64,000 nt of DNA from positions 193,842 to 257,841 of the forward strand of contig JAHBVR010000012.1 in the NCBI GenBank assembly GCA_019637395.1. Reading direction: 5' to 3'. The stretch's first letter is position 1; every line of letters begins with the position of its first letter. The DNA comes from Vulcanimicrobiota bacterium (GTDB taxonomy: Bacteria; Vulcanimicrobiota; Xenobia; Xenobiales; JADMJV01). The notes under the pieces are model-generated. The model ran no database searches. It was given only the letters and a program-made list of their open reading frames with translations, and was not told the origin of the DNA. Shown here piece by piece: positions 7,030-34,954 of the stretch. The translations under genes were made by a program, and so were the position numbers.

Positions 7030-8172
7030 ATGACTCCTAAACCCTCAGCGACTTATCCCGTCATCGTCCTTGGCGCCGGCCCGGCTGGTCTGGCCGTGGC
7101 CTATGAGTTGCTGAGACGTGGAGTCAACCCCCTGGTCCTAGAAAAGGGAGCGACGGCGGGCGCTTCTTTCGCCTCCTTCCCGCGCAATATTTTCTTCGGG
7201 CCGTGGCTCAATAATTTGCTGCCCGGCTCTTCCATCGACTGGGCCTGGCTGCTCAAGCGCTCCACCCAGCCGGCCTATTCCAAGTATTTGCAAGACTATG
7301 CCCATCAGAACCGGCTTCCGGTGAAGTGCGGCGTGGCCGTGCAGTCGGTGGTGCGCGAAGAGAACGGATTCCGCATCCAGACCTCGGCCGGTGAGTATCG
7401 CTGCCAGCTGCTGGTCAACTGCACCGGCTATTTCACGCGGCCCTATACACCCAACTACCCCGGCCTGGACAGCACCCGCATACCTCATATGCACGTATCT
7501 CAATATCGAGACCCATCGACCGTTATGGATATTCTGAAGCGTCGTAGCGGCCGTATCCTGGTGGTGGGCAAGCGGCTCTCGGCCGGTGAGACCTTCGTGG
7601 AATTGCACAATGCCGGCTATCAGATGGCTCTCAGCTACCGCGGCAAAAAGCTACGTTTCGGACCGACCACCTGGGGTGAAGCTCTATTCTCGCCCATCAA
7701 CTGGGTATTCGAGCGCATCTCGGTGGCCCTGCGCGTGCGCAAACATTCCTACCCGCTGATGGCCGGCGGTGAGAGCCGGCGTCTGATCGAGAACGGCCAG
7801 GTAGCGACCTTCTCACAGATTGCTCGCTTCAACGAGAATACGGTGGTCTTCGAGGATGGGCGTGAGGAACGCTTCGATCTGGTGATTTTCGCCACCGGCT
7901 ATCGCGCCGCCATGGCTCATCTGGAAAGCCTGCTGGGCCCGCAGCCCAACGAACCCAAGTTGAAAAACATGGAATCCACCCAGGTCCCCGACCTCTTCTT
8001 CCTGGGCGTGGATCAGCAGCGCACCTATCGCAGTCGCTTTCTGCGCGGCATCGTGGAAGACTCCCGACTGGTGGCCGAACTGGTCGCCCGCCGCGCCCAA
8101 CGCCTCCCTTCCCCCCGCCGCGAACTCCCGGAAATCGTCCCCCTCGAAAACTCCGCCACTCTCGTTAACTAA
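7030..8172 (+). CDS. FAD/NAD(P)-binding oxidoreductase, flavin-containing monooxygenase-like
   Basis: N-terminal Rossmann motif VIVLGAGPAGLAVA, a second dinucleotide motif ILVVGKRLSAGE, and the FMO-type FATGY motif (VIFATGYRA). Confidence 0.8.
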   Translation: MTPKPSATYPVIVLGAGPAGLAVAYELLRRGVNPLVLEKGATAGASFASFPRNIFFGPWLNNLLPGSSIDWAWLLKRSTQPAYSKYLQDYAHQNRLPVKCGVAVQSVVREENGFRIQTSAGEYRCQLLVNCTGYFTRPYTPNYPGLDSTRIPHMHVSQYRDPSTVMDILKRRSGRILVVGKRLSAGETFVELHNAGYQMALSYRGKKLRFGPTTWGEALFSPINWVFERISVALRVRKHSYPLMAGGESRRLIENGQVATFSQIARFNENTVVFEDGREERFDLVIFATGYRAAMAHLESLLGPQPNEPKLKNMESTQVPDLFFLGVDQQRTYRSRFLRGIVEDSRLVAELVARRAQRLPSPRRELPEIVPLENSATLVN

Positions 8173-8788
8173 CGGCTCTCCCCGCCACGCGGGCCAGGCA
8201 CAGGCACACAACCCGCTCGGCGCCGGCCGCGAGCAAGGCGTCGCGGGCATGTTTGAGGGTTTGACCGCTGGTGATAACGTCGTCAACGAGCACGACCGTG
8301 CCGCTCAGACGCCCGCGATAAGCAAAAACGGACCGTTGGGCGCGGCGAGCGTCATAACCACGGAGAGCCTTGCGTGGGGCGGGGTCGCCCAGGCAATGGA
8401 AGTCAGACAAGAGCGGCAGTCCCAGGTTGGCCGCCAGTCTCTGCGGTAGGCAATAGCCGCGCCAGCGTTGGCGCCGGGCCGAAGTGGGCACACCCACTAC
8501 CGAAACATCCCCCACCCTGCGCTGGCGTAGCAGTTTCCTCAGGTGCTCACCCAGCACGCGAAGAAGAGCCTGGTCGTTGCGCTCCTTGATGCGCAATACG
8601 GCTCCTCGCAAAGCCCCGCGGTAGATTCCCAGAGACCCGACTTCCAGTCCATCACGGAACTCCCAGCCAGTTTCCAGCCGGTCCAGGCAAGCGCGGCAAA
8701 ACGGGCTGCCGGAGCGGCCGCATTCTATACAGCGAGCCGGGAAGAGCCGGCTCAGCAGGGCACCGATCAGTCCGAGGATTCCCTCTGC
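8165..8788 (-). CDS. comF: ComF-family phosphoribosyltransferase-domain protein
   Basis: PRTase motif VVLVDDVITSGQTL. The in-frame upstream extension encodes a ComF-type zinc finger (ARCIECGRSGSPFCRACLD). The frame opens right after the stop of the upstream gene, and the first canonical start is a TTG at 8611, so the true start is unresolved. Confidence 0.6.
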   Translation of the reverse strand, partial: AEGILGLIGALLSRLFPARCIECGRSGSPFCRACLDRLETGWEFRDGLEVGSLGIYRGALRGAVLRIKERNDQALLRVLGEHLRKLLRQRRVGDVSVVGVPTSARRQRWRGYCLPQRLAANLGLPLLSDFHCLGDPAPRKALRGYDARRAQRSVFAYRGRLSGTVVLVDDVITSGQTLKHARDALLAAGAERVVCLCLARVAGRAVS

Positions 8789-26585: not shown

Positions 26586-27581
26586 ATGATCCGCAATCTG
26601 GCCGAAATGACCTGGCTCGAAGTCCAACAGCTCAACCTGGACGAGGCGCTGGTCTTCCTACCCGTCAGTCCCCTCGAGCAGCACGGCCCCCATCTACCTA
26701 TTGGAATGGACCTTTTCGGCGCCGAATTCCTCACCCGCAAGATGGCGGAGCTTTTCCAAAGCCTGCACCCCAGTTGGGAAGTGCTGCTCGTACCCGGCCT
26801 GCCGATTGGCTCCAACGCCTTTGACTATCCGGGCAGCCTCTTCACGCGCCAACGGGTCATCCGCGATTTGCTGGTGGACTACGGTGCCTGCCTGGCCCGC
26901 CACGGGTTGATCCACCAGGTCATGATCAGCGTACATGGCGGCACGGGCCATATCGTAGCCATGGAAGAAGCCGCCGACATCCTGGCGCGACGTTTTAAAT
27001 GCCGGATCATTGCTCCCTTCGGCGCCCTGGCCTCGAAGTATTTCCACGGCGGCTATGATGAGCAACTGGGGGCCTTGAGCGGCACGCCCCTCACTCCTGA
27101 AGAACGCAAGCAACTGCGCAGCGACTGGCACGCCGGCTGGTGGGAAACCTCGCTCATGCTGGCCGCCTGCCCGCACCTGGTGCGCCCTGAATACCGCGAG
27201 CTCCAAGAGGTGCGCGTCGACGACTTCCGCAAAGTCAACGATCAACTGGTCAAGAGCCTCAATGAAGGCCTCGGCTACCTGGGCGCGCCGGCCAAAGCCA
27301 GCGCCGAATTCGGCGAACTGCTCTCGGGCCTGCTGGCCGTGGACGGCGTGCGCCTGATCGACCGCATCGTGGTCGGCGGCGGTGCCGTCCAACCCAACGA
27401 CCGCTCCCCCCTCTACGACATCCCCTTCATGCGCACGGACTTCGTGCGCAACTCCGTGGCCGTCGGTGCCGGCGTGCTGCTCACCCTGCTCGGCGGTTTG
27501 CCCCTGCTGGAAGCCGTCCGCCGCGGTGGCATCCCGTTCTTGCCCGAAGACAAAAAACCACTGCCCCCCCGGGAAGACTGA
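26586..27581 (+). CDS. Creatininase-family amidohydrolase with a C-terminal hydrophobic segment
   Basis: Start at the internal ATG. Metal-binding motif LVFLPVSPLEQHGPHLPIGMD. The C-terminal VAVGAGVLLTLLGGLPLL looks TM-like. Confidence 0.75.
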   Translation: MIRNLAEMTWLEVQQLNLDEALVFLPVSPLEQHGPHLPIGMDLFGAEFLTRKMAELFQSLHPSWEVLLVPGLPIGSNAFDYPGSLFTRQRVIRDLLVDYGACLARHGLIHQVMISVHGGTGHIVAMEEAADILARRFKCRIIAPFGALASKYFHGGYDEQLGALSGTPLTPEERKQLRSDWHAGWWETSLMLAACPHLVRPEYRELQEVRVDDFRKVNDQLVKSLNEGLGYLGAPAKASAEFGELLSGLLAVDGVRLIDRIVVGGGAVQPNDRSPLYDIPFMRTDFVRNSVAVGAGVLLTLLGGLPLLEAVRRGGIPFLPEDKKPLPPRED

Positions 27582-28739
27582 CTATGGTTCGAGCGCGAAG
27601 TCGCTCCGCAGGGCATCCATGCGCTCGCGCCAGCGCGCCTCCACCCGCGCTTTCTCGCGTTCCGGCAAGAAGCTGGAGCGAATGCCGTTGAGACTGATTT
27701 TCTCGAGATCCTGCAGGCTCAAGCCGCATTGTTCGGCCATGGCCAAGTACTCGCCGGTGAGAGTCAGGTCGAAGATATGGCGGTCGTCGGTGCTGATGGT
27801 GACGGGAATTCCCTGGTGGGCATAAGTCATGAGCGGGTAGGACTTGAGGTCTTTGACTACGTTGATGAGCAGATTGCTACTCGGGCACATCTCCAGGGTA
27901 GCCCGGCGGCGGGCAACTTCCTCAAGCACGGCCGGATCCTCGCCCAACCGCACGCCATGGCCGATGCGCTCGGCGTGACAGACTTCCAGAGCCTGGCGAA
28001 TGCTGTCCGGCCCCACGGCCTCACCGGCGTGGATGGTGATGTGCAGCCCCTGGCTCTGAGCATAGTCGAAGACTTCCTTGAACTTGGAGGCGGGATGATG
28101 AACTTCGTCGCCGGCCAGGTCCATGGCCACCACGCCCCGGTCTTTGCGCGCGGCCGCCGCCCGGGCCACGCGCATGGCCGACTCCAGCGGATAGCTGCGG
28201 TTTAGCGAGACGATCAGACGCGACTCGATGCCGTAATCTTCACTGGCCTGCTGCATTCCCTCGAGCACTGCGTCGAGCACGCCCTCGATGGACAGCACAT
28301 CCTCGCGCTTGACCGGGTTGATGCGAATCTCGCTGTAGACCACCCCCTCGCGCGCTTCTTCCTCGACCATCTCGTAGGCCACCCGCCGCAAGCTCTCGGG
28401 ATGGTCGAAAACAAAGCGGAAAGGGTCGAACTTCTTGAGAAAATCGAGCAGATTCTCGCCCGGGCGCATCTGGATTTTTTTCTTGAGTTCCTCGACATTG
28501 GCGGCGCCCAGCTCGATATTATAGACTTGCGCCAGTTCCAGAATCGTGTCAGGCCGAACCGCACCCTCCAGGTGCGTATGCAACTCTGTCTTAGGCATGT
28601 GCTCGACCAGTTGGCGAAAGGCGTCTTTGTCGAAGTAACGGGTGGAGGCGTCGCTACGAGCAGGATCACCAATTCGAAAGGAGGGCTCGGCCGAAGCCAA
28701 CAGCGTCAGAGCGAGGAAAAGGGCGGCGCAGGTTTTCAC
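27582..28739 (-). CDS. add: Adenosine deaminase family protein with an N-terminal signal peptide
   Basis: TELHTHLEGA (the HxH zinc motif), …SLNRS…, HAGE, and the C-terminal DD (TISTDD). Signal peptide MKTCAALFLALTLLASA. Confidence 0.82.
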   Translation of the reverse strand: MKTCAALFLALTLLASAEPSFRIGDPARSDASTRYFDKDAFRQLVEHMPKTELHTHLEGAVRPDTILELAQVYNIELGAANVEELKKKIQMRPGENLLDFLKKFDPFRFVFDHPESLRRVAYEMVEEEAREGVVYSEIRINPVKREDVLSIEGVLDAVLEGMQQASEDYGIESRLIVSLNRSYPLESAMRVARAAAARKDRGVVAMDLAGDEVHHPASKFKEVFDYAQSQGLHITIHAGEAVGPDSIRQALEVCHAERIGHGVRLGEDPAVLEEVARRRATLEMCPSSNLLINVVKDLKSYPLMTYAHQGIPVTISTDDRHIFDLTLTGEYLAMAEQCGLSLQDLEKISLNGIRSSFLPEREKARVEARWRERMDALRSDFALEP

Positions 28740-29537
28740 CTAAACCGGAGGTTTCTCCAAATGAGTCTGGTGCACGCACAGATCGGCGATCTTGCGCACC
28801 AGCGCGCCTACCAGGGGCACGGCGGCCATGGTTCCGCCCAGCGAAAGAAGGTTGTTCATGATACGCGACTTCAAAGTTTTGCCCTCGAACTGCTCGCGCT
28901 TGCCCTGGGCGCTCAGGCCTTCCCCCCACAGCTTGCCGGTGGCCCACTCGTAGGCAGCGCTGGTTTCACGGCGCTGGGTGCGGTTTTCTTGGACGCATGT
29001 ATAGACTTTGCGTAGATAGCCGGATTCGCCCAGACGATCGGGATCGATTTCCACCGAGGCGCCGGCATACATCAGATTAGCCCGATTAAATCCTGGAGTT
29101 TTTTCCGACATGGGAAACAGGCAGGCGCCGTCGGTTTCCACGCGCTTCTCAAAGCAATCGAAGCCCTTGGAAACTTCCTCCGGTTTGATGGCGGCGTAGC
29201 CATCCAGGTCCGAATTGGCGCCCAGACGGCCGCGCGAGAAACTGCCGGTCAGGTAAATTTTGCTGGGATAAGCAGGCAGTTCTTGCACATTCTCGAGCAA
29301 AGACCGCTGCAGCGCGTCAATGCGCGGCCCCACCTGCGCATCGGTAAAAGGCCTGGCCAGTTCGCGATCCACCTTGGACTGCCAGCGCGCCGACAACTGG
29401 TCGGAAGAACGGTGAGAAAGGTAAGTAGCCAGGTTCTCCTGCATCACTTCGTGCTGCTCGGCCGGCAGGCCGCGTTCTTTCATCAACTTGCCGGCATCAC
29501 GCCAATGCTGGTCCGGCCATTTGGTCTGGATTCTCAC
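28740..29537 (-). CDS. Nucleotidyltransferase-domain protein (Pol-beta superfamily, PF01909-like)
   Basis: LTGSFSRGRLGANSDLDGYAAI matches hG[GS]x9-13Dh[DE]h. Forms an ATGA overlap with the upstream His-box gene. The N-terminus reads MRIQTKW…. Confidence 0.65.
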   Translation of the reverse strand: MRIQTKWPDQHWRDAGKLMKERGLPAEQHEVMQENLATYLSHRSSDQLSARWQSKVDRELARPFTDAQVGPRIDALQRSLLENVQELPAYPSKIYLTGSFSRGRLGANSDLDGYAAIKPEEVSKGFDCFEKRVETDGACLFPMSEKTPGFNRANLMYAGASVEIDPDRLGESGYLRKVYTCVQENRTQRRETSAAYEWATGKLWGEGLSAQGKREQFEGKTLKSRIMNNLLSLGGTMAAVPLVGALVRKIADLCVHQTHLEKPPV

Positions 29538-30127
29538 TGGGGCATGCCCATCCGGGCCAGTTCAGCCGTCAACTGCTCTTCGCTGATCTTACCGAGAGCG
29601 AAGTTCTTGTAGGGTTCCACTTTCCAGGCGACCGGTTCGGCGCCGAGGGTATTGTAGATGGCCTTTTCCCACTTGGGCCAGAACTTGATTTTGTCGAGCG
29701 CCTTATTGCTCACGCCGATCAGACAATAGTCGGAATCGTGCGTGTTGGTGTGCCACTTGGTGTGCTTGAGAGTCTGAGCCTGGCTGCCGTAGTTGTCGCC
29801 CTTGTGATGCCACACGCCCGAAGCCAGGTCCATGGCCACGATGATGGCGCCCGCTCCCAAAGCGGTGATGGCGGCTCGGGTCAGTCCCACCGACAGGCTG
29901 CTCGAGGTGGCCAGATCGTAGCCAATCTTGGCCACCCCGGCCACTCCGACGGCGGCCGCGGCACCACGGGCGATTTTCTTGACCACGCGGTGAGCGGGCC
30001 GGGCTCCCGAAAACTCGACGGAATCGCTCTGTTCTTTGGGCTGCGGCTGGGGAGTGGTGGCGAACTTGTTGTAGCTGATCGTTACCTTCATGTTATTGTG
30101 CTGGATTTTCATCCGTCGATTCCCCAT
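29534..30127 (-). CDS. His-box membrane protein (short paralog of the 30109..31092 gene)
   Basis: Shares GVWHHKGDNYG and HTNTHDSDYCLIGVSNKALDKIKFWPKWEKAIY with its neighbour. The N-terminus carries the MKIQ / Pro-rich / SDSVEF module. Confidence 0.6.
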   Translation of the reverse strand: MGNRRMKIQHNNMKVTISYNKFATTPQPQPKEQSDSVEFSGARPAHRVVKKIARGAAAAVGVAGVAKIGYDLATSSSLSVGLTRAAITALGAGAIIVAMDLASGVWHHKGDNYGSQAQTLKHTKWHTNTHDSDYCLIGVSNKALDKIKFWPKWEKAIYNTLGAEPVAWKVEPYKNFALGKISEEQLTAELARMGMPQ

Positions 30128-31092
30128 TTCTCTTTGCGCATCGGCATCTCGGTGGCTTTGAAGCCCTTCATCATTTCTCGGGAACGGGCGATGTATTCTT
30201 CTTTGCTGATCTTGCCGTCCACGTAGTCCTTATATTCCGGGACATTCCAGGAGTCCGGCTTGGCTCCGGTGATTTTATAGATGGCCTTTTCGTAGCGGGG
30301 CCAGAACTTGATTTTGTCGAGCGGCTTGTTGAGATGGCCGGTGACGATGCAGTAATCGCTGTTCCAGGGCATGCGGTGGTGAACGCCGTGATTCTTGGGG
30401 TCGATGGCCAGGCCGGCTTTTTGGAGCAGTTTGCCGTGCTTGGGAACCTCGGTCTGCTTCATATGCGACCACTGGTGGAATTTACCGTAAACGCTCATAC
30501 CGCCGATGAGCCCGATGGCGCCGGCCAGGATGGGAGCGGGAGCCCCCAGAGCGGCGGCGCCGACCAGCGGGGCCCAGGCTACCGTGCTGAGCGGGAAGGC
30601 CCAGTAAGACAGGGAGTAGTGACCCAGTTTACCGGGGTGGAAGTGATGGCGCTGGGCCTGCTTGGCGAATTTGCGCACGAAACCGAGCTTGGCGTCGGGC
30701 TTGGCGTAGTTGTCGGCCCAGTGGTGCAGCAGCCCCGAGGGCAGGTCGGCCAGCACGTAGCCGGCGGCCAGAGCGCCGGTGGAGAGAGCGGCCGTTCCAA
30801 TGGCCGCGCCCAGCGTGGGGGCACCGGCCACGTCGGCGATGACTTTGGCGGCGCACCAGGCGCCGGAGGCGAGCACGCCGCCGAACATCAACTTCATAAA
30901 GGGGCTGCCTTCGGTATCCTTACCGGCGACACGCTTTTCTTGGAAGAATCCTTTGATGAGGCGCTGGCCCAAACCCAACTCCGGTTCTGGCCGGGAAGTC
31001 TCGAGCTGCACGCTGTCGGCGGCCGGGGCGGCCGGAGGAGCCGGCAGCAGTTTGGGCAGATTCGGTTGGCTGGGTACGCTCTGGATTTTCAT
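30109..31092 (-). CDS. His-box membrane protein, di-iron lipid desaturase/hydroxylase-like (CarF/FAD4/TMEM189-like, tentative)
   Basis: His clusters LLHHWADNY, HHFHPGK, HQWSHMK and HGVHHRMPWNSDYC, separated by hydrophobic Gly/Ala-rich helices. The N-terminus reads MKIQSVPSQPNLPKLLPAPPAAPAADSVQL. Confidence 0.6.
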   Translation of the reverse strand: MKIQSVPSQPNLPKLLPAPPAAPAADSVQLETSRPEPELGLGQRLIKGFFQEKRVAGKDTEGSPFMKLMFGGVLASGAWCAAKVIADVAGAPTLGAAIGTAALSTGALAAGYVLADLPSGLLHHWADNYAKPDAKLGFVRKFAKQAQRHHFHPGKLGHYSLSYWAFPLSTVAWAPLVGAAALGAPAPILAGAIGLIGGMSVYGKFHQWSHMKQTEVPKHGKLLQKAGLAIDPKNHGVHHRMPWNSDYCIVTGHLNKPLDKIKFWPRYEKAIYKITGAKPDSWNVPEYKDYVDGKISKEEYIARSREMMKGFKATEMPMRKEKWGIDG

Positions 31093-31168
31093 AGGCCAAA
31101 TTTACAACTCGTCAATGAAAAGTCCCTGAATTTATCCCTTCAGGCTTCTTTGAGGAGATTCGACTAAG

Positions 31169-31927
31169 TTGATAAGCGTGAAACTACAGCGACATAGTCC
31201 GCAAACGCCTCGTCCCCTACCCCCTCCCAAACCACCCGAACCCAACGACCCGGGCAGCCTCGTCGACCACGTGGGAGCTGTCCAATTGGGAGGCCTGCTC
31301 AGTGACCTGGGGATGGGGGCTGCCTACACCTTTGGCGCCTCCACACCCGTCAGCGGCCTGGGACTGGCCATGGCCGCCTTCCATGGCGCCCGCGGGGCCG
31401 CTTTTGGTGCTTTAGCCTTAAAGGAAAAAGAAGCGTTTAAACTTAAAGCTCGCATCGGTGTGGCCGCTTCGGAGGGCCTGCTGGCCGCCGGCCATGCCCT
31501 GGGAGCCCTGGGCGGGGGCGCCTGGAGCATCCCATTGCTGGCCGCCGGCGCCGGACTGAATGCCTTCACCGACTACAAATACCGCACCCACTTCGGAGTG
31601 GAAGCCCCGGCCAAAGGCCCGGTCAGCCCGGCCCGCATTGCGGGTGCAATGGTGGATGGCGCCCTGGGCGTTAGCTACGCCGCCGGCGCCTCTTCTTTAG
31701 GTCTGGTGGCCGGTGCCGGCCACCTTGGCGCCATGGTCGGCTACTACGGCGGCAGCCTCTGGAAACCCGAAATGAAGCATCACTGGCACAGTAAAGGTTT
31801 CGGCCACGCCCTGCTGGCCGCCGGCCACCTGGCCGGAGCCGCCGGGGCCGGCGCCTGGGTTCTGCCCGTGCTGGCTGGCGGGACTTTGATCACCACCCTT
31901 CAGGATTCGCGCCAGAACGCCAAATAA
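31169..31927 (+). CDS. Gly/Ala-rich glycine-zipper membrane protein with a Pro-rich N-terminus
   Basis: MISVKLQRHSPQTPRPLPPPKPPEPNDPGSLVDHVGAVQL, then GxxxG/AxxxA zippers and the His motif EMKHHWHSKGFGH. Confidence 0.55.
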   Translation: MISVKLQRHSPQTPRPLPPPKPPEPNDPGSLVDHVGAVQLGGLLSDLGMGAAYTFGASTPVSGLGLAMAAFHGARGAAFGALALKEKEAFKLKARIGVAASEGLLAAGHALGALGGGAWSIPLLAAGAGLNAFTDYKYRTHFGVEAPAKGPVSPARIAGAMVDGALGVSYAAGASSLGLVAGAGHLGAMVGYYGGSLWKPEMKHHWHSKGFGHALLAAGHLAGAAGAGAWVLPVLAGGTLITTLQDSRQNAK

Positions 31928-32112
31928 TTTTGTTCATGAATTGGCCAAGGACTTGTCCTCGGAACGCGACCAGTTCCGCTCCTCTGTCCTGGGACAGCAG
32001 CCCATCTGCATCGCCAATGAGGACAAAAGCCGCCTGACGCGTTCGGATCTGGCGTCGACTATGGTCGGGTCGGGTGCCTAACACCCAAAAGCCAGCTACC
32101 CCTCAGCGAAAG

Positions 32113-33261
32113 CTACTGACCCCACCCAAAAAAGTCGCGCATCTCCAAATACGTCTGCGGGTTCGAGAACAGCAGGCCGTGGTTGCGGTGGTGGCGGTCT
32201 TTCAAAAAGTGGGGTTTCTCGTCGCCGATCTGGAGGGAGTTGCCGGGCACGGTGCCGTCGCCGAGCACGGGGATGAAGTAGCGGCCCAGCGTCGGGCGGG
32301 AGTGGGAGCCGACCAGGCGCACCGCTTCGCTACGGGCCTTCTGGCTTTCCCAGCGTGAATTCAAGTCAGCCAGTTGAGGGTTGGCGGGGCCGCCGGTGAC
32401 GGGGCGCAGCCAGCCCAGCGCGTCGCGGTCGGCTTCGGTGATGGGTTTGCGCGAAAGCAGCCAGTTGGTATCCCAACCCCGACCGGCCAGATCCAGCAGT
32501 CCCAGCGAAGAACGAGCCAGCGCCGAGCCGCGATTGGGCGTGCCCAGCATCATGAACTTACCCACCTGGTCGCCGCCCTGATCCAAGTAGGTGCGCGTGG
32601 CCAGTCCGCCCATGGAATAGCCGACCACGTCGGCCTTGGGACTGCCGGTCAGGGCCGCGATGGCTTTCAAATCCCGCGCCAATTCGGGAGCAGACAGATT
32701 AGGCGGAGTATTCACCGAAGGGAACACGGCCACGAAAACCTTGCCGTCGGAGCGCACCTGCGAAGTCAAAATGCGCTCCTGGCAATCCAGATCAGCGAAG
32801 AACTCGCCGTCGCGCACATAGTAAACGCGCCCGCCGTTCTGACCGTTGGCGGTCAGCTTCTCGGCCAGATGATCAAAGCGATCCTCGGGAGTCTGCCAAC
32901 CCGGTACCAGCACCACCGGACGCTGAATGCGCGAGTCGGGTAAATCCTTCAGCAAAGTCGGGGGGAGCGGCTTTTTGATGGCGCCCAGCGACTCCCACCA
33001 GCCCATTTTCTGACCCAGGTGCTCCAAGCCCTCGCCCGCCTTGGAGAGCACCACCGCCAACGGCCCGCACAGGGCCATCAGAACCTTTGAGCCCAGGCCG
33101 GTGATGAAACGCGGCTTTTCCTCCAAAGTCGTCCAGGCGGGGGGACCTTTGGGCCCATTCGGACCACCGCCAATCTGAACGCTATCAGGCGAAGCGGGCG
33201 AAACAGACGGGCGAGGCGGCACAGGCGCCGAAAGAGGACGAAACGCGGACTGGATCTTCAC
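32113..33261 (-). CDS. Alpha/beta-hydrolase (lipase/esterase) carrying the MKIQ N-terminal module
   Basis: Nucleophile elbow VVGYSMGGLATR (GxSxG). The N-terminus MKIQSAFRPLSAPVPPRPSVSPASPDSVQI parallels that of the 30109 gene. Confidence 0.78.
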   Translation of the reverse strand: MKIQSAFRPLSAPVPPRPSVSPASPDSVQIGGGPNGPKGPPAWTTLEEKPRFITGLGSKVLMALCGPLAVVLSKAGEGLEHLGQKMGWWESLGAIKKPLPPTLLKDLPDSRIQRPVVLVPGWQTPEDRFDHLAEKLTANGQNGGRVYYVRDGEFFADLDCQERILTSQVRSDGKVFVAVFPSVNTPPNLSAPELARDLKAIAALTGSPKADVVGYSMGGLATRTYLDQGGDQVGKFMMLGTPNRGSALARSSLGLLDLAGRGWDTNWLLSRKPITEADRDALGWLRPVTGGPANPQLADLNSRWESQKARSEAVRLVGSHSRPTLGRYFIPVLGDGTVPGNSLQIGDEKPHFLKDRHHRNHGLLFSNPQTYLEMRDFFGWGQ

Positions 33262-33324
33262 ACGCTTACCTTAGCAGCCCCTCGAACCAGCTTGAAGAAA
33301 CAGAAAGTTAACGGGCGGACATCA

Positions 33325-33370
33325 AAAAGGAGCCGCTAGCGCTTCGGGGGGGTCGTGGCTAGCAGCTCCT
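33325..33370 (-). terminator. Rho-independent terminator after the efflux operon (minus strand)
   Basis: GGAGCCGCTAGC…GCTAGCAGCTCC, a 12-bp stem with one mismatch and a long loop, followed on the minus strand by a T-run. Confidence 0.55.
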
Positions 33371-33454
33371 ACGTCAGAGTAGCACTCCCTCCAGGTCCAT
33401 GACAGGCACTTTATACCTAGTTTTTATCACAAAACATGGTCAAACATGACCATA

Positions 33455-34954
33455 TCATGGAGTAGGTGGAGCAGCCTGGCTGAAGTAGCCGTGTTCGAAA
33501 GGAGCGGCCAGGGCGTGGCGCAGACGCGCCCGCGACAAATTCAACTCATTCAGAGAGTTCACGTAATTGGTGCGGGCCGAAACGATAGCATTCTGGGCGT
33601 CGAACACATCCGTCAGGGTCCCCAGGGCGGCCCGGTAGCGCCCCGAAGCGATGCGCACACCCTCACGGGCCGAATCCACGGCGGCGGCCGCCGCCTCCAG
33701 ATTGCGCTCGGCCGTCAGCAACTGCATGACCACTCCACTCACGTCCCGCTCCACCAGCAACTGAGTTCGAGTGTAGGCGGCTTTGGCCACCTCGATGCCG
33801 CCCTGGGCGTTGATGGTGGCACCGGCCTGGGCACCGCCGTCCCACACCTGAAAGTCGATGGACATCTGCAGGTTGAAGGTCGGATATTGCACGCCGTTGG
33901 CGCGTCCTTGATAAGTAATTCCCGCGAAAGTCGACAGAGCCGGGTAATTCAAGGTCCGGGCCGCGTCGTAAGCAGCCAGAGCCGCATCCACATTACGCTG
34001 GGCCACCAACATATCCGGTCGCTGCGCGAAAGCCAGCTTGCTCAACTCGTTCATGTCCCGCAAAGGCACATCCGGCTCGTCAAAGTCGACCAGCTCCAGC
34101 GAACTGCGGGGAGAAAGGCCCAGGGACTGGGCCAGATCGAGACGAGCCAGTTCCAGGTTACGCCGCGCGTTGTTCAGGGCGAAGACCGAATTAGACACAG
34201 TGGTTTGGGAGCGAACCACGTCGCCCGGCGACATATTGCCGGCCTGGAAAAGCGCCCGCGACATGCGCAACTGTTCCTGACGATTCTTCAGATCGTCCTC
34301 CCCCACCTGAACCAGACGCTGCGCTTGCAAAACCGTATAATAACGCTCCTTGACCGTCAGGGACACGTCATTCTCGGTTTGCAACAGGCTGGCAGCCGCG
34401 GCCTGGCGACGCAAATCGGCGGCCCGCACCAGATCGCGGGTATGGCCGAAATCGAAAAGCAGCCAGTTGATACCCACGCTGTTGGACCAGGTATCGGTGG
34501 TCCGATTGACCGGGTTCAGGCCCAGCGAAGCCGTCTGGCTACCCGCCGAAGTGCCGGAAATATGACTGTACTGACTGGTGCCTCCGATGTGAGGCAATAG
34601 AGCGGCGCGCTGCTGTATGGTGGTGCCCTCGGCCTGCTGCAACTGGCCCTGGGCGGTGCGAATGTCCGGCTGCAGCCGCCAGGCCAGCCGCACGGCTTCT
34701 TCGGGGCGAATCGGCAAGCGGGGCGCATTCTCGTCCTCCGGCTCAGGCAGGGCCAAAGGAATCGGCGGCTTGGGAACGGCCTCACGCGTCTGGTCGGGGT
34801 TGAAAGGCGCGGGCTCTCCCGGCACCGGCTCGGGCATCAACGGCGGCGGCGGGGGCAGCGGAGGTTTTGCGAAGGCCGGCAAAGCCAGCCAGAGACACAG
34901 AAGACCCTTACGCACGCGCTTTCCTCTGCTTAAAGAAACGGCGTTCGAAGTCAT
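33455..34954 (-). CDS. TolC-family outer-membrane efflux protein
   Basis: 499 aa. Pro-rich N-terminal linker, tandem alpha-helical/beta-barrel halves, and the typical …LNLSRARL… closing motif. Confidence 0.85.
   Translation of the reverse strand: MTSNAVSLSRGKRVRKGLLCLWLALPAFAKPPLPPPPPLMPEPVPGEPAPFNPDQTREAVPKPPIPLALPEPEDENAPRLPIRPEEAVRLAWRLQPDIRTAQGQLQQAEGTTIQQRAALLPHIGGTSQYSHISGTSAGSQTASLGLNPVNRTTDTWSNSVGINWLLFDFGHTRDLVRAADLRRQAAAASLLQTENDVSLTVKERYYTVLQAQRLVQVGEDDLKNRQEQLRMSRALFQAGNMSPGDVVRSQTTVSNSVFALNNARRNLELARLDLAQSLGLSPRSSLELVDFDEPDVPLRDMNELSKLAFAQRPDMLVAQRNVDAALAAYDAARTLNYPALSTFAGITYQGRANGVQYPTFNLQMSIDFQVWDGGAQAGATINAQGGIEVAKAAYTRTQLLVERDVSGVVMQLLTAERNLEAAAAAVDSAREGVRIASGRYRAALGTLTDVFDAQNAIVSARTNYVNSLNELNLSRARLRHALAAPFEHGYFSQAAPPTP

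Follow-up and report, generated by a model that had tools for sequence, protein, structure and literature searches.

An adenosine deaminase with a predicted Sec signal peptide encoded next to an orphan nucleotidyltransferase in a Vulcanimicrobiota genome

Bacterial Add-type adenosine deaminases are usually cytosolic salvage enzymes, and the deaminases of the CARF-ADA (Cad1) and RADAR (RdrB) defence systems are cytosolic as well. In the eukaryotic ADGF/ADA2 (CECR1) family the deaminase is exported via a signal peptide, and ADA2 proteins have a long N-terminal extension ahead of the deaminase core. Among small nucleotidyltransferases (NTases), MNT antitoxins measure about 100-150 aa and are encoded beside a HEPN toxin. 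In the window, meaning the whole 64,000-nt stretch of DNA analyzed here, an Add-family deaminase gene directly follows an NTase gene. The deaminase features were as follows.

27582 to 28739, minus strand: Add-family adenosine deaminase gene, 385 aa, GTG start at 28737-28739 and TAG stop at 27582-27584
27642 to 28595, minus strand: Add catalytic (TIM-barrel) domain, residues 49-366, from the PF00962 match and alignment to Add structures
28689 to 28739, minus strand: predicted Sec-type signal peptide, Add residues 1-17 (MKTCAALFLALTLLASA), predicted cleavage ASA/EP, from N-terminal hydropathy and orthologues
28599 to 28688, minus strand: clade-specific 30-residue mature N-terminal segment of Add (EPSFRIGDP...FRQLVEH), from the alignment of extended orthologues

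The window Add matched PF00962 over profile positions 1-323 of 330 (E=1.5e-95, 320.5 bits, cut-off 27) and passed the curated cut-off of TIGR01430 (320.2 against 216.55 bits). Its zinc and catalytic motifs (HTH54-56, HAGE237-240, GHG260 and TDD317) were all found and aligned to those of Add structures; the nearest solved structures were the bacterial enzymes 6n9m and 6n91 (E~1e-62), with alignments beginning at query residue 46-48. By sequence, the protein is a catalytically complete Add-type adenosine deaminase with predicted activity. The full catalytic domain and the HxH, HAGE, GHG and TDD motifs are common to this protein and the bacterial Add/ADA1-type enzymes (TIGR01430, PF00962); however, the window Add differs from them in having a predicted Sec-type signal peptide and the clade-specific 30-residue N-terminal segment. 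Signal-peptide export is shared with ADGF/ADA2, but the corresponding model, TIGR01431, reached only 74.5 bits (cut-off 315) and covered residues 118-376, which is the shared deaminase core. The extra sequence ahead of the Add core, about 30 residues, is also much shorter than the ADA2 extension.

At the Add N-terminus (MKTCAALFLALTLLASA, then EP) a basic n-region precedes a hydrophobic core of 12 residues, and positions -3 to -1 read A-S-A, in agreement with the Sec/SPI sequence pattern (M-K, CAALFLALTLLA, then A-S-A before E-P). Its 10-residue hydropathy maximum was 2.65, within the range of 2.0-2.9 over 25 orthologues, in which the hydrophobic character was kept and the sequence had diverged. 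The N-terminus classifier called a hydrophobic N-terminus in 25 of 65 members of the Add clade and in none of 55 outgroup Adds (39-46% identity); orthologue P0061, with a hydropathy of 1.79, fell narrowly below the threshold. These figures bore out the proposal of an earlier note on this DNA that the deaminase carries a Sec signal peptide. The signal-peptide Adds formed one derived clade in a neighbor-joining tree, indicating that the signal peptide arose once and that its conservation partly reflects shared ancestry.

The earlier note had also raised the concern that the Add start was mispredicted, which was not the case. Each of the five syntenic genomes had a GTG-AAR start 0-5 nt past the NTase stop, with three different relative frames among them, and in each the 46-48 codon extension was free of stops and frameshifts. 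The ratio dN/dS was ~0.3-0.5 for the extension and 0.03-0.12 for the core in the four computable pairs (two further pairs were saturated), showing that the extension is under purifying selection. In nearly every extended orthologue, the 30-residue segment upstream of the catalytic domain contained an invariant Pro and, after it, an [IV]-[KR]-[IV] motif. It was common to orthologues with a signal peptide and to those with a different leader (see below), and outgroup Adds had no such segment. The Add is very probably extracytoplasmic, given a signal peptide that stood up to these checks and is conserved.

The gene upstream encodes the NTase, with the following features.

28740 to 29537, minus strand: orphan Pol-beta-superfamily nucleotidyltransferase gene, 265 aa, GTG start, N-terminus MRIQ, TAG stop at 28740-28742
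29202 to 29246, minus strand: NTase active-site motif G98-S99-F-S-R-G-R-L-G-A-N-S-D110-L-D112, from conservation and the structure model
28797 to 28853, minus strand: mildly hydrophobic C-terminal NTase segment, residues 229-247 (NLLSLGGTMAAVPLVGALV), from hydropathy
28737 to 28742, minus strand: TAG/GTG junction from NTase stop to Add start, 0-nt spacer, from the sequence

Residues G98, S99, F100, G103, R104, S109, D110 and L111 were invariant in 26 NTase homologues and D112 was conserved in at least 90% of them, so that the superfamily motif hG[GS]-x9-13-Dh[DE]h is present as G98-S99-x10-D110-L-D112. In the structure model (pLDDT 91.4) the motif sits on beta1-loop-beta2, with strands at 93-97 and 111-117. 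No invariant acidic residue that could be a third catalytic carboxylate was found on strand 138-144 in the 26 homologues and the model; D127, nearly invariant, is located in the helix after beta2. The description of this protein as PF01909-like held for the family, with its invariant GS...SDL motif, and fell slightly short for the window protein itself, which scored 20.5 bits against a gathering score of 21. Remote relatives that the family profile linked to it (E as low as 1e-29) reached 24-34 bits, above the cut-off, and also carried the signature GSxxKGRxGxNSD[LIV]D. No NCBIfam model matched the NTase.

The best structural matches were minimal NTases and MNT antitoxins (PF01909; 2rff, 8xeh and 7bxo), which share the GS...DxD core and the alpha/beta fold of solved PF01909/Pol-beta members; none of the structural matches was specific, and family-specific helical domains probably flank the core on both sides. 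Assignment to the subfamilies that the earlier note had listed for checking was negative for both MNT antitoxins and CD-NTases. The window protein differs from HEPN-MNT antitoxins in its length of 265 aa with extra domains and in its neighbors, Lipid_desat proteins and Add, and from the CD-NTases of CBASS in having no PADLOC match, in the absence of a nearby effector or Cap gene and in structural alignment over the core only. The G-x11-D-x-D motif is shared with the AMPylation domains of DrrA/SidM and GlnE, and DrrA was the best named match of the NTase family profile among PDB sequences; however, the adenylyltransferase domain of neither DrrA nor GlnE gave a significant match in sequence or fold.

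Taken by its sequence and model, the NTase is a founding member of a small PF01909/Pol-beta branch, as yet uncharacterised, with a predicted two-Asp metal site, and the family comprised ~120 cluster representatives in 1.84 billion proteins. It defines a well-folded and unannotated part of the superfamily, and two genomic associations make it approachable by experiment: within this clade with CarF-like desaturases, and in its distant homologues with PNP_UDP_1 domains. In those distant homologues a PNP_UDP_1 nucleoside-phosphorylase domain is fused or adjacent, which hints at nucleoside or nucleotide chemistry and makes a nucleoside-related partner of the NTase plausible. The C-terminal segment at residues 229-247 (19-residue hydropathy 1.64), in which G235 and P241 were invariant and G244 almost so among the 26 homologues, suggests membrane association.

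Upstream of the NTase are two desaturase-like genes and, beyond them, two further genes of the cluster.

29534 to 29537, minus strand: GTGA start/stop overlap of Des2 and NTase (translational coupling), from the sequence
29534 to 30112, minus strand: Des2, short paralogue, 192 aa from the MKIQ ATG (PF10520 E=5e-12, positions 127-175 only)
30109 to 31092, minus strand: Des1, full CarF/PEDS1-like lipid desaturase domain protein with MKIQ leader (PF10520 E=1.5e-34, whole profile)
31169 to 31927, plus strand: divergent Gly/Ala-rich protein, start TTG 31169 or GTG 31178 (giving MKLQ)
32113 to 33261, minus strand: lipase-like alpha/beta-hydrolase with MKIQ...DSVQIGG leader (weak Abhydrolase_1, DUF7379 and Lipase_2 matches)

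Des1 matched the whole Lipid_desat profile and its His boxes, as do the CarF/PEDS1 (TMEM189) plasmanylethanolamine desaturases, and the Des2 match was limited to the C-terminal part (last third) of this CarF-type domain; both window proteins differ from CarF/PEDS1 in carrying an MKIQ leader. The NF045946 CarF model gave Des1 72 bits against a cut-off of 500, showing that Des1 is not a CarF equivalog. Coupling of the NTase to an upstream His-box gene, as the earlier note had it, was confirmed, but the overlap is GTGA (GTG start, TGA stop) and not ATGA; an ATGA overlap occurs one gene further upstream, at the Des1/Des2 junction. By gene coordinates the 4-nt Des2-NTase overlap was also present in L001, L003, L009 and L010, and the Des1-Des2-NTase order with 4-nt overlaps was retained in L003/L004, L009, L010, L012, L013, L014, L018 and L020. 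The Gly/Ala-rich protein had no Pfam match; its gene was syntenic in L003, L010, L013, L014 and L020, and its orthologues start with MKIQQQ, MKIH or MNIQ. The lipase-like hydrolase had 63 homologues. Mildly hydrophobic, Gly/Ala-rich segments were found in every cluster protein, indicating that the NTase is most likely a membrane-associated nucleotidyltransferase.

The reading that we prefer, with a rough probability of 0.55, is that a periplasmic Add lies beside a membrane-associated orphan NTase module, as two separate things side by side. Translation of the Add would begin with the GTG at 28739, and the protein, exported by Sec and probably cleaved after Ala17, would convert periplasmic adenosine or deoxyadenosine to inosine in a diderm host; a diderm envelope is indicated by TolC-like OEP and RND genes, found both in the window and in L010. 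Location, cleavage and physiological role are here deduced from sequence, and the simplest role for an exported Add would be the scavenging of external purine nucleosides. The NTase would belong to the conserved, translationally coupled Des1-Des2-NTase unit, alongside the lipase-like hydrolase and the Gly/Ala-rich protein, and may be a membrane-associated nucleotidyl (probably adenylyl) transferase that acts with Des1, Des2 and neighboring proteins. In one sub-lineage the Add gene presumably came to lie directly behind this unit, with which it would be co-transcribed without being an obligate partner. A clade with a systematically exported Add would suggest that purine nucleosides are processed outside the cell or in the periplasm in Eremiobacterota, a phylum that is poorly known and mostly uncultured.

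A second reading, which we regard as tentative and on balance unlikely, concerns the leader that recurs in the cluster. This MKIQ-type leader is non-hydrophobic and consists of M-K/R/Q-I/V-Q followed by 20-40 Pro/Ser/Thr/Gln-rich residues and often by D/E-S-V-x-L/I-G/S. It might be an undescribed export or translocation signal of Eremiobacterota, interchangeable with Sec, with Add and NTase in one exported enzyme set. The speculative cargo would comprise nucleoside- or nucleotide-acting, lipolytic and lipid-modifying enzymes (Add, NTase, hydrolase and desaturase-like proteins) and an FtsH-like protease, serving as toxins or effectors in a target cell, and the Add of the window lineage would have switched to Sec. 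The NTase and the FtsH-like AAA protease would be ATP/NTP-dependent cargoes, so some of the set would have to act inside the target cell.

The leader occupied exactly the signal-peptide position in ~20 sister-lineage Add orthologues, directly upstream of the shared P-I-K-I-G segment, which favors this reading. Of 45 close NTases, 35 had a leader-type N-terminus, as did 32 of 60 hydrolases, compared with 3 of 55 outgroup Adds. Among 117 NTase representatives, 20 had hydrophobic, signal-peptide-like N-termini and 28 had non-hydrophobic M-x-[IV] ones, showing that Sec signal peptide and MKIQ-type leader alternate in the NTase family as in the Add family. The two-motif leader could be aligned across unrelated protein families, anthrax-lethal-factor-like, RHS and TPS proteins were among the neighbors of related loci, and the hydrophobic segments of the cluster are only mild and Gly/Ala-rich. 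However, the leader is tied to no secretion apparatus, and the multi-pass desaturase-like proteins would be odd cargo. Only one replacement of leader by signal peptide was seen in the Add tree, and a change of compartment explains it equally well. The window NTase retains the first four leader residues only, and the second motif was inconsistent in unselected counts; as a universal element it was rejected, with a strict regular expression finding few cases beyond the hand-picked set.

We take the leader to resemble FlgM N-termini and the type III signal rules of Pseudomonas syringae. Ten leaders had no Pfam match at E<=10 and the leader profile had no match among PDB sequences, FlgM included, and an FlgM-like or other known origin was rejected on these grounds. 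Literature searches on Eremiobacterota/Xenobia secretion and on periplasmic adenosine deaminases yielded nothing relevant. If true, the alternation of Sec signal peptide and leader at one position would be the most consequential point of the locus, as a handle on a new protein-targeting route in Eremiobacterota.

That the NTase and the exported Add cooperate, in nucleotide-signal processing or in conflict and defence as the earlier note had suggested, for example with Add degrading or detoxifying an adenylylated product or signal made by the NTase, appears improbable. NTase and Add were separated by 0, 1, 2 or 5 nt over the window, L010, L012, L013 and L020, and the junction persisted in all five syntenic genomes with Add identity down to 75%, indicating that co-expression is real and could be functional. 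In the window both genes are in one frame with a single TAG between them; stop-codon read-through or an NTase-Add fusion was ruled out by the varying spacers and the differing stop codons. Add stood beside the NTase only where the whole neighborhood was syntenic, that is, in these five, and the adjacency was gone in all lineages outside this block. The NTase was found with two desaturase genes and without Add in L003/L004, L014, L009 and L018, and alone in L005, L007 and L015-L017; Add had other neighbors in L021 and L022. The pairing is thus confined to a single syntenic sub-clade, which leaves little evidence for a conserved module, and NTase and Add as one functional unit are weakly supported. 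Moreover, with Add in the periplasm and the NTase dependent on NTP, the two would be in separate compartments. The PNP_UDP_1 fusions and adjacencies in the NTase family speak for cooperation; the gene after the NTase pair in L009, however, a Glycos_transf_3 neighbor considered as a nucleoside phosphorylase, was an ordinary TrpD (TIGR01245, 338 bits).

As to defence, the relation of Add to CARF-ADA lies in the deaminase domain, and PADLOC matched Add with this model only, through its deaminase half (E=1e-55, model positions 252-593), but the CARF domain is absent from Add. RADAR RdrB (NF041744) scored 14.8 bits against a cut-off of 800, and a signal peptide is unexpected for either of these cytosolic deaminases. 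The NTase and the other cluster proteins had no match among PADLOC models, and membership in a known defence system was rejected on this basis.

It is less probable still that the hydrophobic N-terminus of Add is an uncleaved signal anchor tethering the enzyme to the inner membrane beside the Des and NTase proteins. In favor of an anchor, hydrophobic segments occur in all neighboring cluster proteins, the hydrophobic core of Add is short and its cleavage is a prediction. Small residues at -3/-1 followed by a Pro-containing mature start are typical of signal peptidase I substrates, and the Add orthologues showed just this, with ASA, CLA, ALA, AAA or AQA recurring ahead of a conserved Pro-containing start, which argues for cleavage as in the preferred reading of a periplasmic Add. 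Translation from Met48 (MPKTELHTHLEG), which would leave the upstream 47 codons untranslated and make Add a cytosolic housekeeping enzyme, matches the canonical Add N-terminus at which Pfam and PDB alignments start and the annotation of database orthologue P0094, but is rejected as highly improbable because more than 25 orthologues share the open frame, the 46-48 codon length, the GTG-AAR start and the hydrophobic character, the extension is under purifying selection and the P-I-K-I-G segment is conserved even among leader-type orthologues.

In a scan of positions 27000-33600, counts of promoters and terminators did not exceed those obtained after shuffling the sequence. A single weak hairpin resembling a terminator was observed just beyond the Add stop.

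The window belongs to the genome of an uncultured member of Eremiobacterota (NCBI name: Vulcanimicrobiota); a protein from an NCBI MAG of 'Candidatus Eremiobacteraeota bacterium' is 100% identical to the window's adenosine deaminase (Add). Both reading frames singled out in the earlier note, Add and the orphan nucleotidyltransferase (NTase), were confirmed at their positions. They closed a minus-strand series with OEP and RND efflux genes upstream of it; downstream of Add lay a creatininase-family gene in convergent orientation, along with Dus and a WD40 protein. The features were as follows.

32113-33261(-), lipase-like alpha/beta-hydrolase, first of the minus-strand series
31169-31927(+), Gly/Ala-rich gene, divergent, between the hydrolase and Des1
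30109-31092(-), Des1, CarF-like lipid desaturase, after the hydrolase
29534-30112(-), Des2, truncated Des1 paralogue, after Des1
28740-29537(-), NTase, after Des2
27582-28739(-), Add, last of the minus-strand series

The ATGA overlap previously assigned to NTase and its upstream gene was GTGA in the actual sequence; ATGA sits at the Des1/Des2 junction. Des2 (as 29534-30127(-)) matched the CarF-type desaturase domain at profile positions 127-175 only, yet it is conserved, and these overlaps couple its translation to both neighbouring genes. A single 527-aa gene call spanned Des1 and Des2 in L020, a locus of another genome, as are all L-numbered loci below. Add and the creatininase-family gene terminated on abutting codons (27579-27584) with zero spacer, and the sole hairpin resembling a terminator of Add transcription (27563-27578, minus strand) lay within the creatininase coding sequence.

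Add matched PF00962 with E=1.5e-95, far over the curated cut-off, and TIGR01430 with 320 bits (cut-off 217). HTH, HAGE, GHG and TDD were retained. The protein shows the defining features of the Add family and belongs to it, not to ADA2/ADGF, RdrB or CARF-ADA. Alignment to solved bacterial Add structures began at residue 46-48. Because the annotated start is the first codon past the NTase stop, a start artefact was a serious possibility, and the alternative start Met48 would yield a textbook cytosolic Add. However, a GTG-AAA/G start followed the NTase stop in all five syntenic genomes, with spacers of 0 (window), 2 (L010), 5 (L012), 0 (L013) and 1 nt (L020). The relative frames of NTase and Add differed among these genomes, ruling out stop-codon read-through from one into the other. 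The N-terminal extension of 46-48 codons carried no stops or frameshifts in the syntenic genomes. Its dN/dS was ~0.3-0.5 versus 0.03-0.12 in the Add core in the four computable pairs, two further pairs being too saturated, and a signal peptide plus linker would be expected to show such a pattern. In 25 database Add orthologues a basic residue, a hydrophobic core and small residues preceded a conserved Pro; their 10-residue hydropathy maximum was 2.0-2.9, and their sequences had diverged in this region. Another orthologue, P0061, reached 1.79, slightly below the threshold. No hydrophobic N-terminus of this kind was found in 55 outgroup Adds (39-46% identity). The conserved GTG start, the open extension, the selection on it and the hydrophobic N-termini of orthologues oppose a start at Met48 and, together with the outgroup result, bear out the signal peptide claimed in the earlier note, showing that this predicted feature is conserved. 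In the best-supported reading, Add would be exported via Sec, its signal peptide probably cleaved and the enzyme probably periplasmic, handling external adenosine and possibly serving salvage.

About 25 fetched loci were searched with the window proteins, and the results were read together with gene tables. The hydrolase, Gly/Ala-rich gene, Des1, Des2, NTase, Add, creatininase and Dus recurred as a block in L010, L012, L013 and L020, with Add at least 75% identical, and the tight NTase-Add junction in this lineage implies probable co-transcription. Des1-Des2-NTase was kept with 4-nt overlaps, and no Add followed, where NTase was ~68% (L003/L004, L014) or ~50% identical (L009, L018). A second, stand-alone NTase paralogue occurred in L005, L007 and L015-L017, and Add orthologues lay among unrelated genes in L021 and L022. 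The persistence of Des1-Des2-NTase without Add indicates that the conserved partner of NTase is the desaturase pair, and Add is a lineage-specific neighbour. The Add-NTase pairing proposed earlier as a nucleotide-signal or conflict/defence module is therefore weak, as Add adjoins NTase in the syntenic lineage only. In the best-supported reading, the probably exported Add lies downstream of a putatively membrane-associated Des1-Des2-NTase unit, possibly of lipid-related function. The apparent nucleoside-enzyme neighbour of NTase in L009 was an ordinary TrpD, hence no parallel. In related genomes, NTase homologues had toxin- or effector-type genes at distances of a few kb at most, encoding a TPS-domain protein (L003 1775-4828), an RHS/YD-repeat protein (L007 14134-16825) and an anthrax-lethal-factor-like (ATLF) protein (L009 5266-6324).

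Across 26 NTase homologues G98, S99, F100, G103, R104, S109, D110 and L111 were invariant and D112 was conserved in at least 90%; a third catalytic carboxylate was sought among them and none was located. The close homologues formed 45 clusters, none of them named, and those with a named source were all Eremiobacterota. When 1.84 billion cluster representatives were searched with a profile, only 120 matched at E<=1e-3, and these share the signature GSxxKGRxGxNSD[LIV]D. The window NTase alone scored 0.5 bit below the PF01909 cut-off; several remote members exceeded it and thereby link the family to the PF01909 superfamily. AlphaFold gave a confident model (pLDDT 91.4), in which a four-helix N-terminal domain precedes the beta-loop-beta core of the NTase, and the C-terminal domain is helical and contains a mildly hydrophobic segment (residues 229-247). 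Motif, predicted fold and transitive profile evidence together place NTase in the Pol-beta/PF01909 superfamily; membrane association and adenylyl-transfer chemistry are plausible. Structure-search matches were confined to the core, Foldseek gave no match at E<1e-3 in PDB or BFVD, and NCBIfam and PADLOC gave none. NTase is thus not a known housekeeping enzyme, and it failed or had no placement in every sub-family tested, MNT, CD-NTase, ANT and PAP being unassignable. Public gene calls place its start differently, at a later ATG that gives 247 aa (L023 2257-3000) or at the GTG that gives 265 aa (window); conservation of residues 9-18 favours the GTG as the probable start.

A PNP_UDP_1 domain, of the nucleoside phosphorylase/nucleosidase superfamily, lay directly N-terminal of the NTase domain in 5 of 8 large multi-domain homologues. 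In the deltaproteobacterial L019, an overlapping gene upstream of the NTase homologue encoded an MdcG-like plus PNP_UDP_1 protein (gene pair 7095-10028 and 9992-11089). The linked distant homologues were P0176, P0228, P0252, P0253 and P0275, some cases carrying an extra MdcG-like NTase domain. Such fusion and adjacency suggest that the family acts in the chemistry of nucleosides or nucleotides. They are no proof that Add fills such a role in the window but, like the N-termini described next, they point to a possible NTase-Add link.

At least five window genes (hydrolase, Des1, Des2, NTase and 14968-15843(-)) start with M-K/R-I-Q, and a sixth, the Gly/Ala-rich gene, starts with M-K-L-Q only if its start is GTG 31178. 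In five of the six a non-hydrophobic Pro/Ser/Thr/Gln-rich stretch of 20-40 residues came next, often running to D/E-S-V-x-L/I-G/S; NTase has MRIQ without the rest of this leader. In related genomes the leader was also present on proteins of unrelated families; the leader sets compared were partly hand-picked. About 20 sister-lineage Add orthologues (among them P0072, P0074-P0084, P0086, P0090, P0092, P0093; L021 7001-8260) bear it instead of a Sec signal peptide, for example MKIQAHSTQRS...DRVELAQGSDWKPIKIVG, directly before the P-I-K-I-G segment, which in the window Add comes after the signal peptide. All extended Adds formed one clade in a neighbour-joining tree of catalytic domains, with polar-leader forms basal and signal-peptide forms a single derived clade, indicating that a signal peptide took the place of the leader once. 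Leader-type N-termini were found in 35/45 close NTases, 32/60 hydrolase homologues and 3/55 outgroup Adds; among 117 NTase representatives, 20 had a signal-peptide-like and 28 a non-hydrophobic M-x-[IV] N-terminus. This replacement and these N-terminal statistics are the basis for a more novel, rather unlikely reading, in which the leader itself would direct export or translocation by a hypothetical machinery, and Add and NTase would share a destination, not a pathway. This reading is attractive because its ATP/NTP-dependent cargo (NTase; a leader-bearing FtsH-like AAA protease in L005, L007 and, putatively, L015) would function only inside a cell, as is seen for toxins and effectors. The leader matched nothing in Pfam or among PDB sequences. 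The locus offers an apparently exported variant of a known enzyme beside a new small family of a known superfamily, its interest carried mainly by the exchange of signal peptide and leader.

FtsH-like AAA plus Peptidase_M41 proteins with the leader (MQIGPLRIQ...DSVALG) were encoded at L005 521-2185 and L007 2586-4244, in each case two genes before the NTase paralogue that stands alone, and had no hydrophobic segment within the first ~40 residues; an ORF at L015 3964-5631 had a similar leader. Elsewhere in the window, each of three successive ORFs at 54045-56577(-) had a short hydrophobic segment at its N-terminus, prepilin-like in at least one of them (MRRGMTLIELMVWS...), which suggests a putative pseudopilin or type IV pilin-like cluster.
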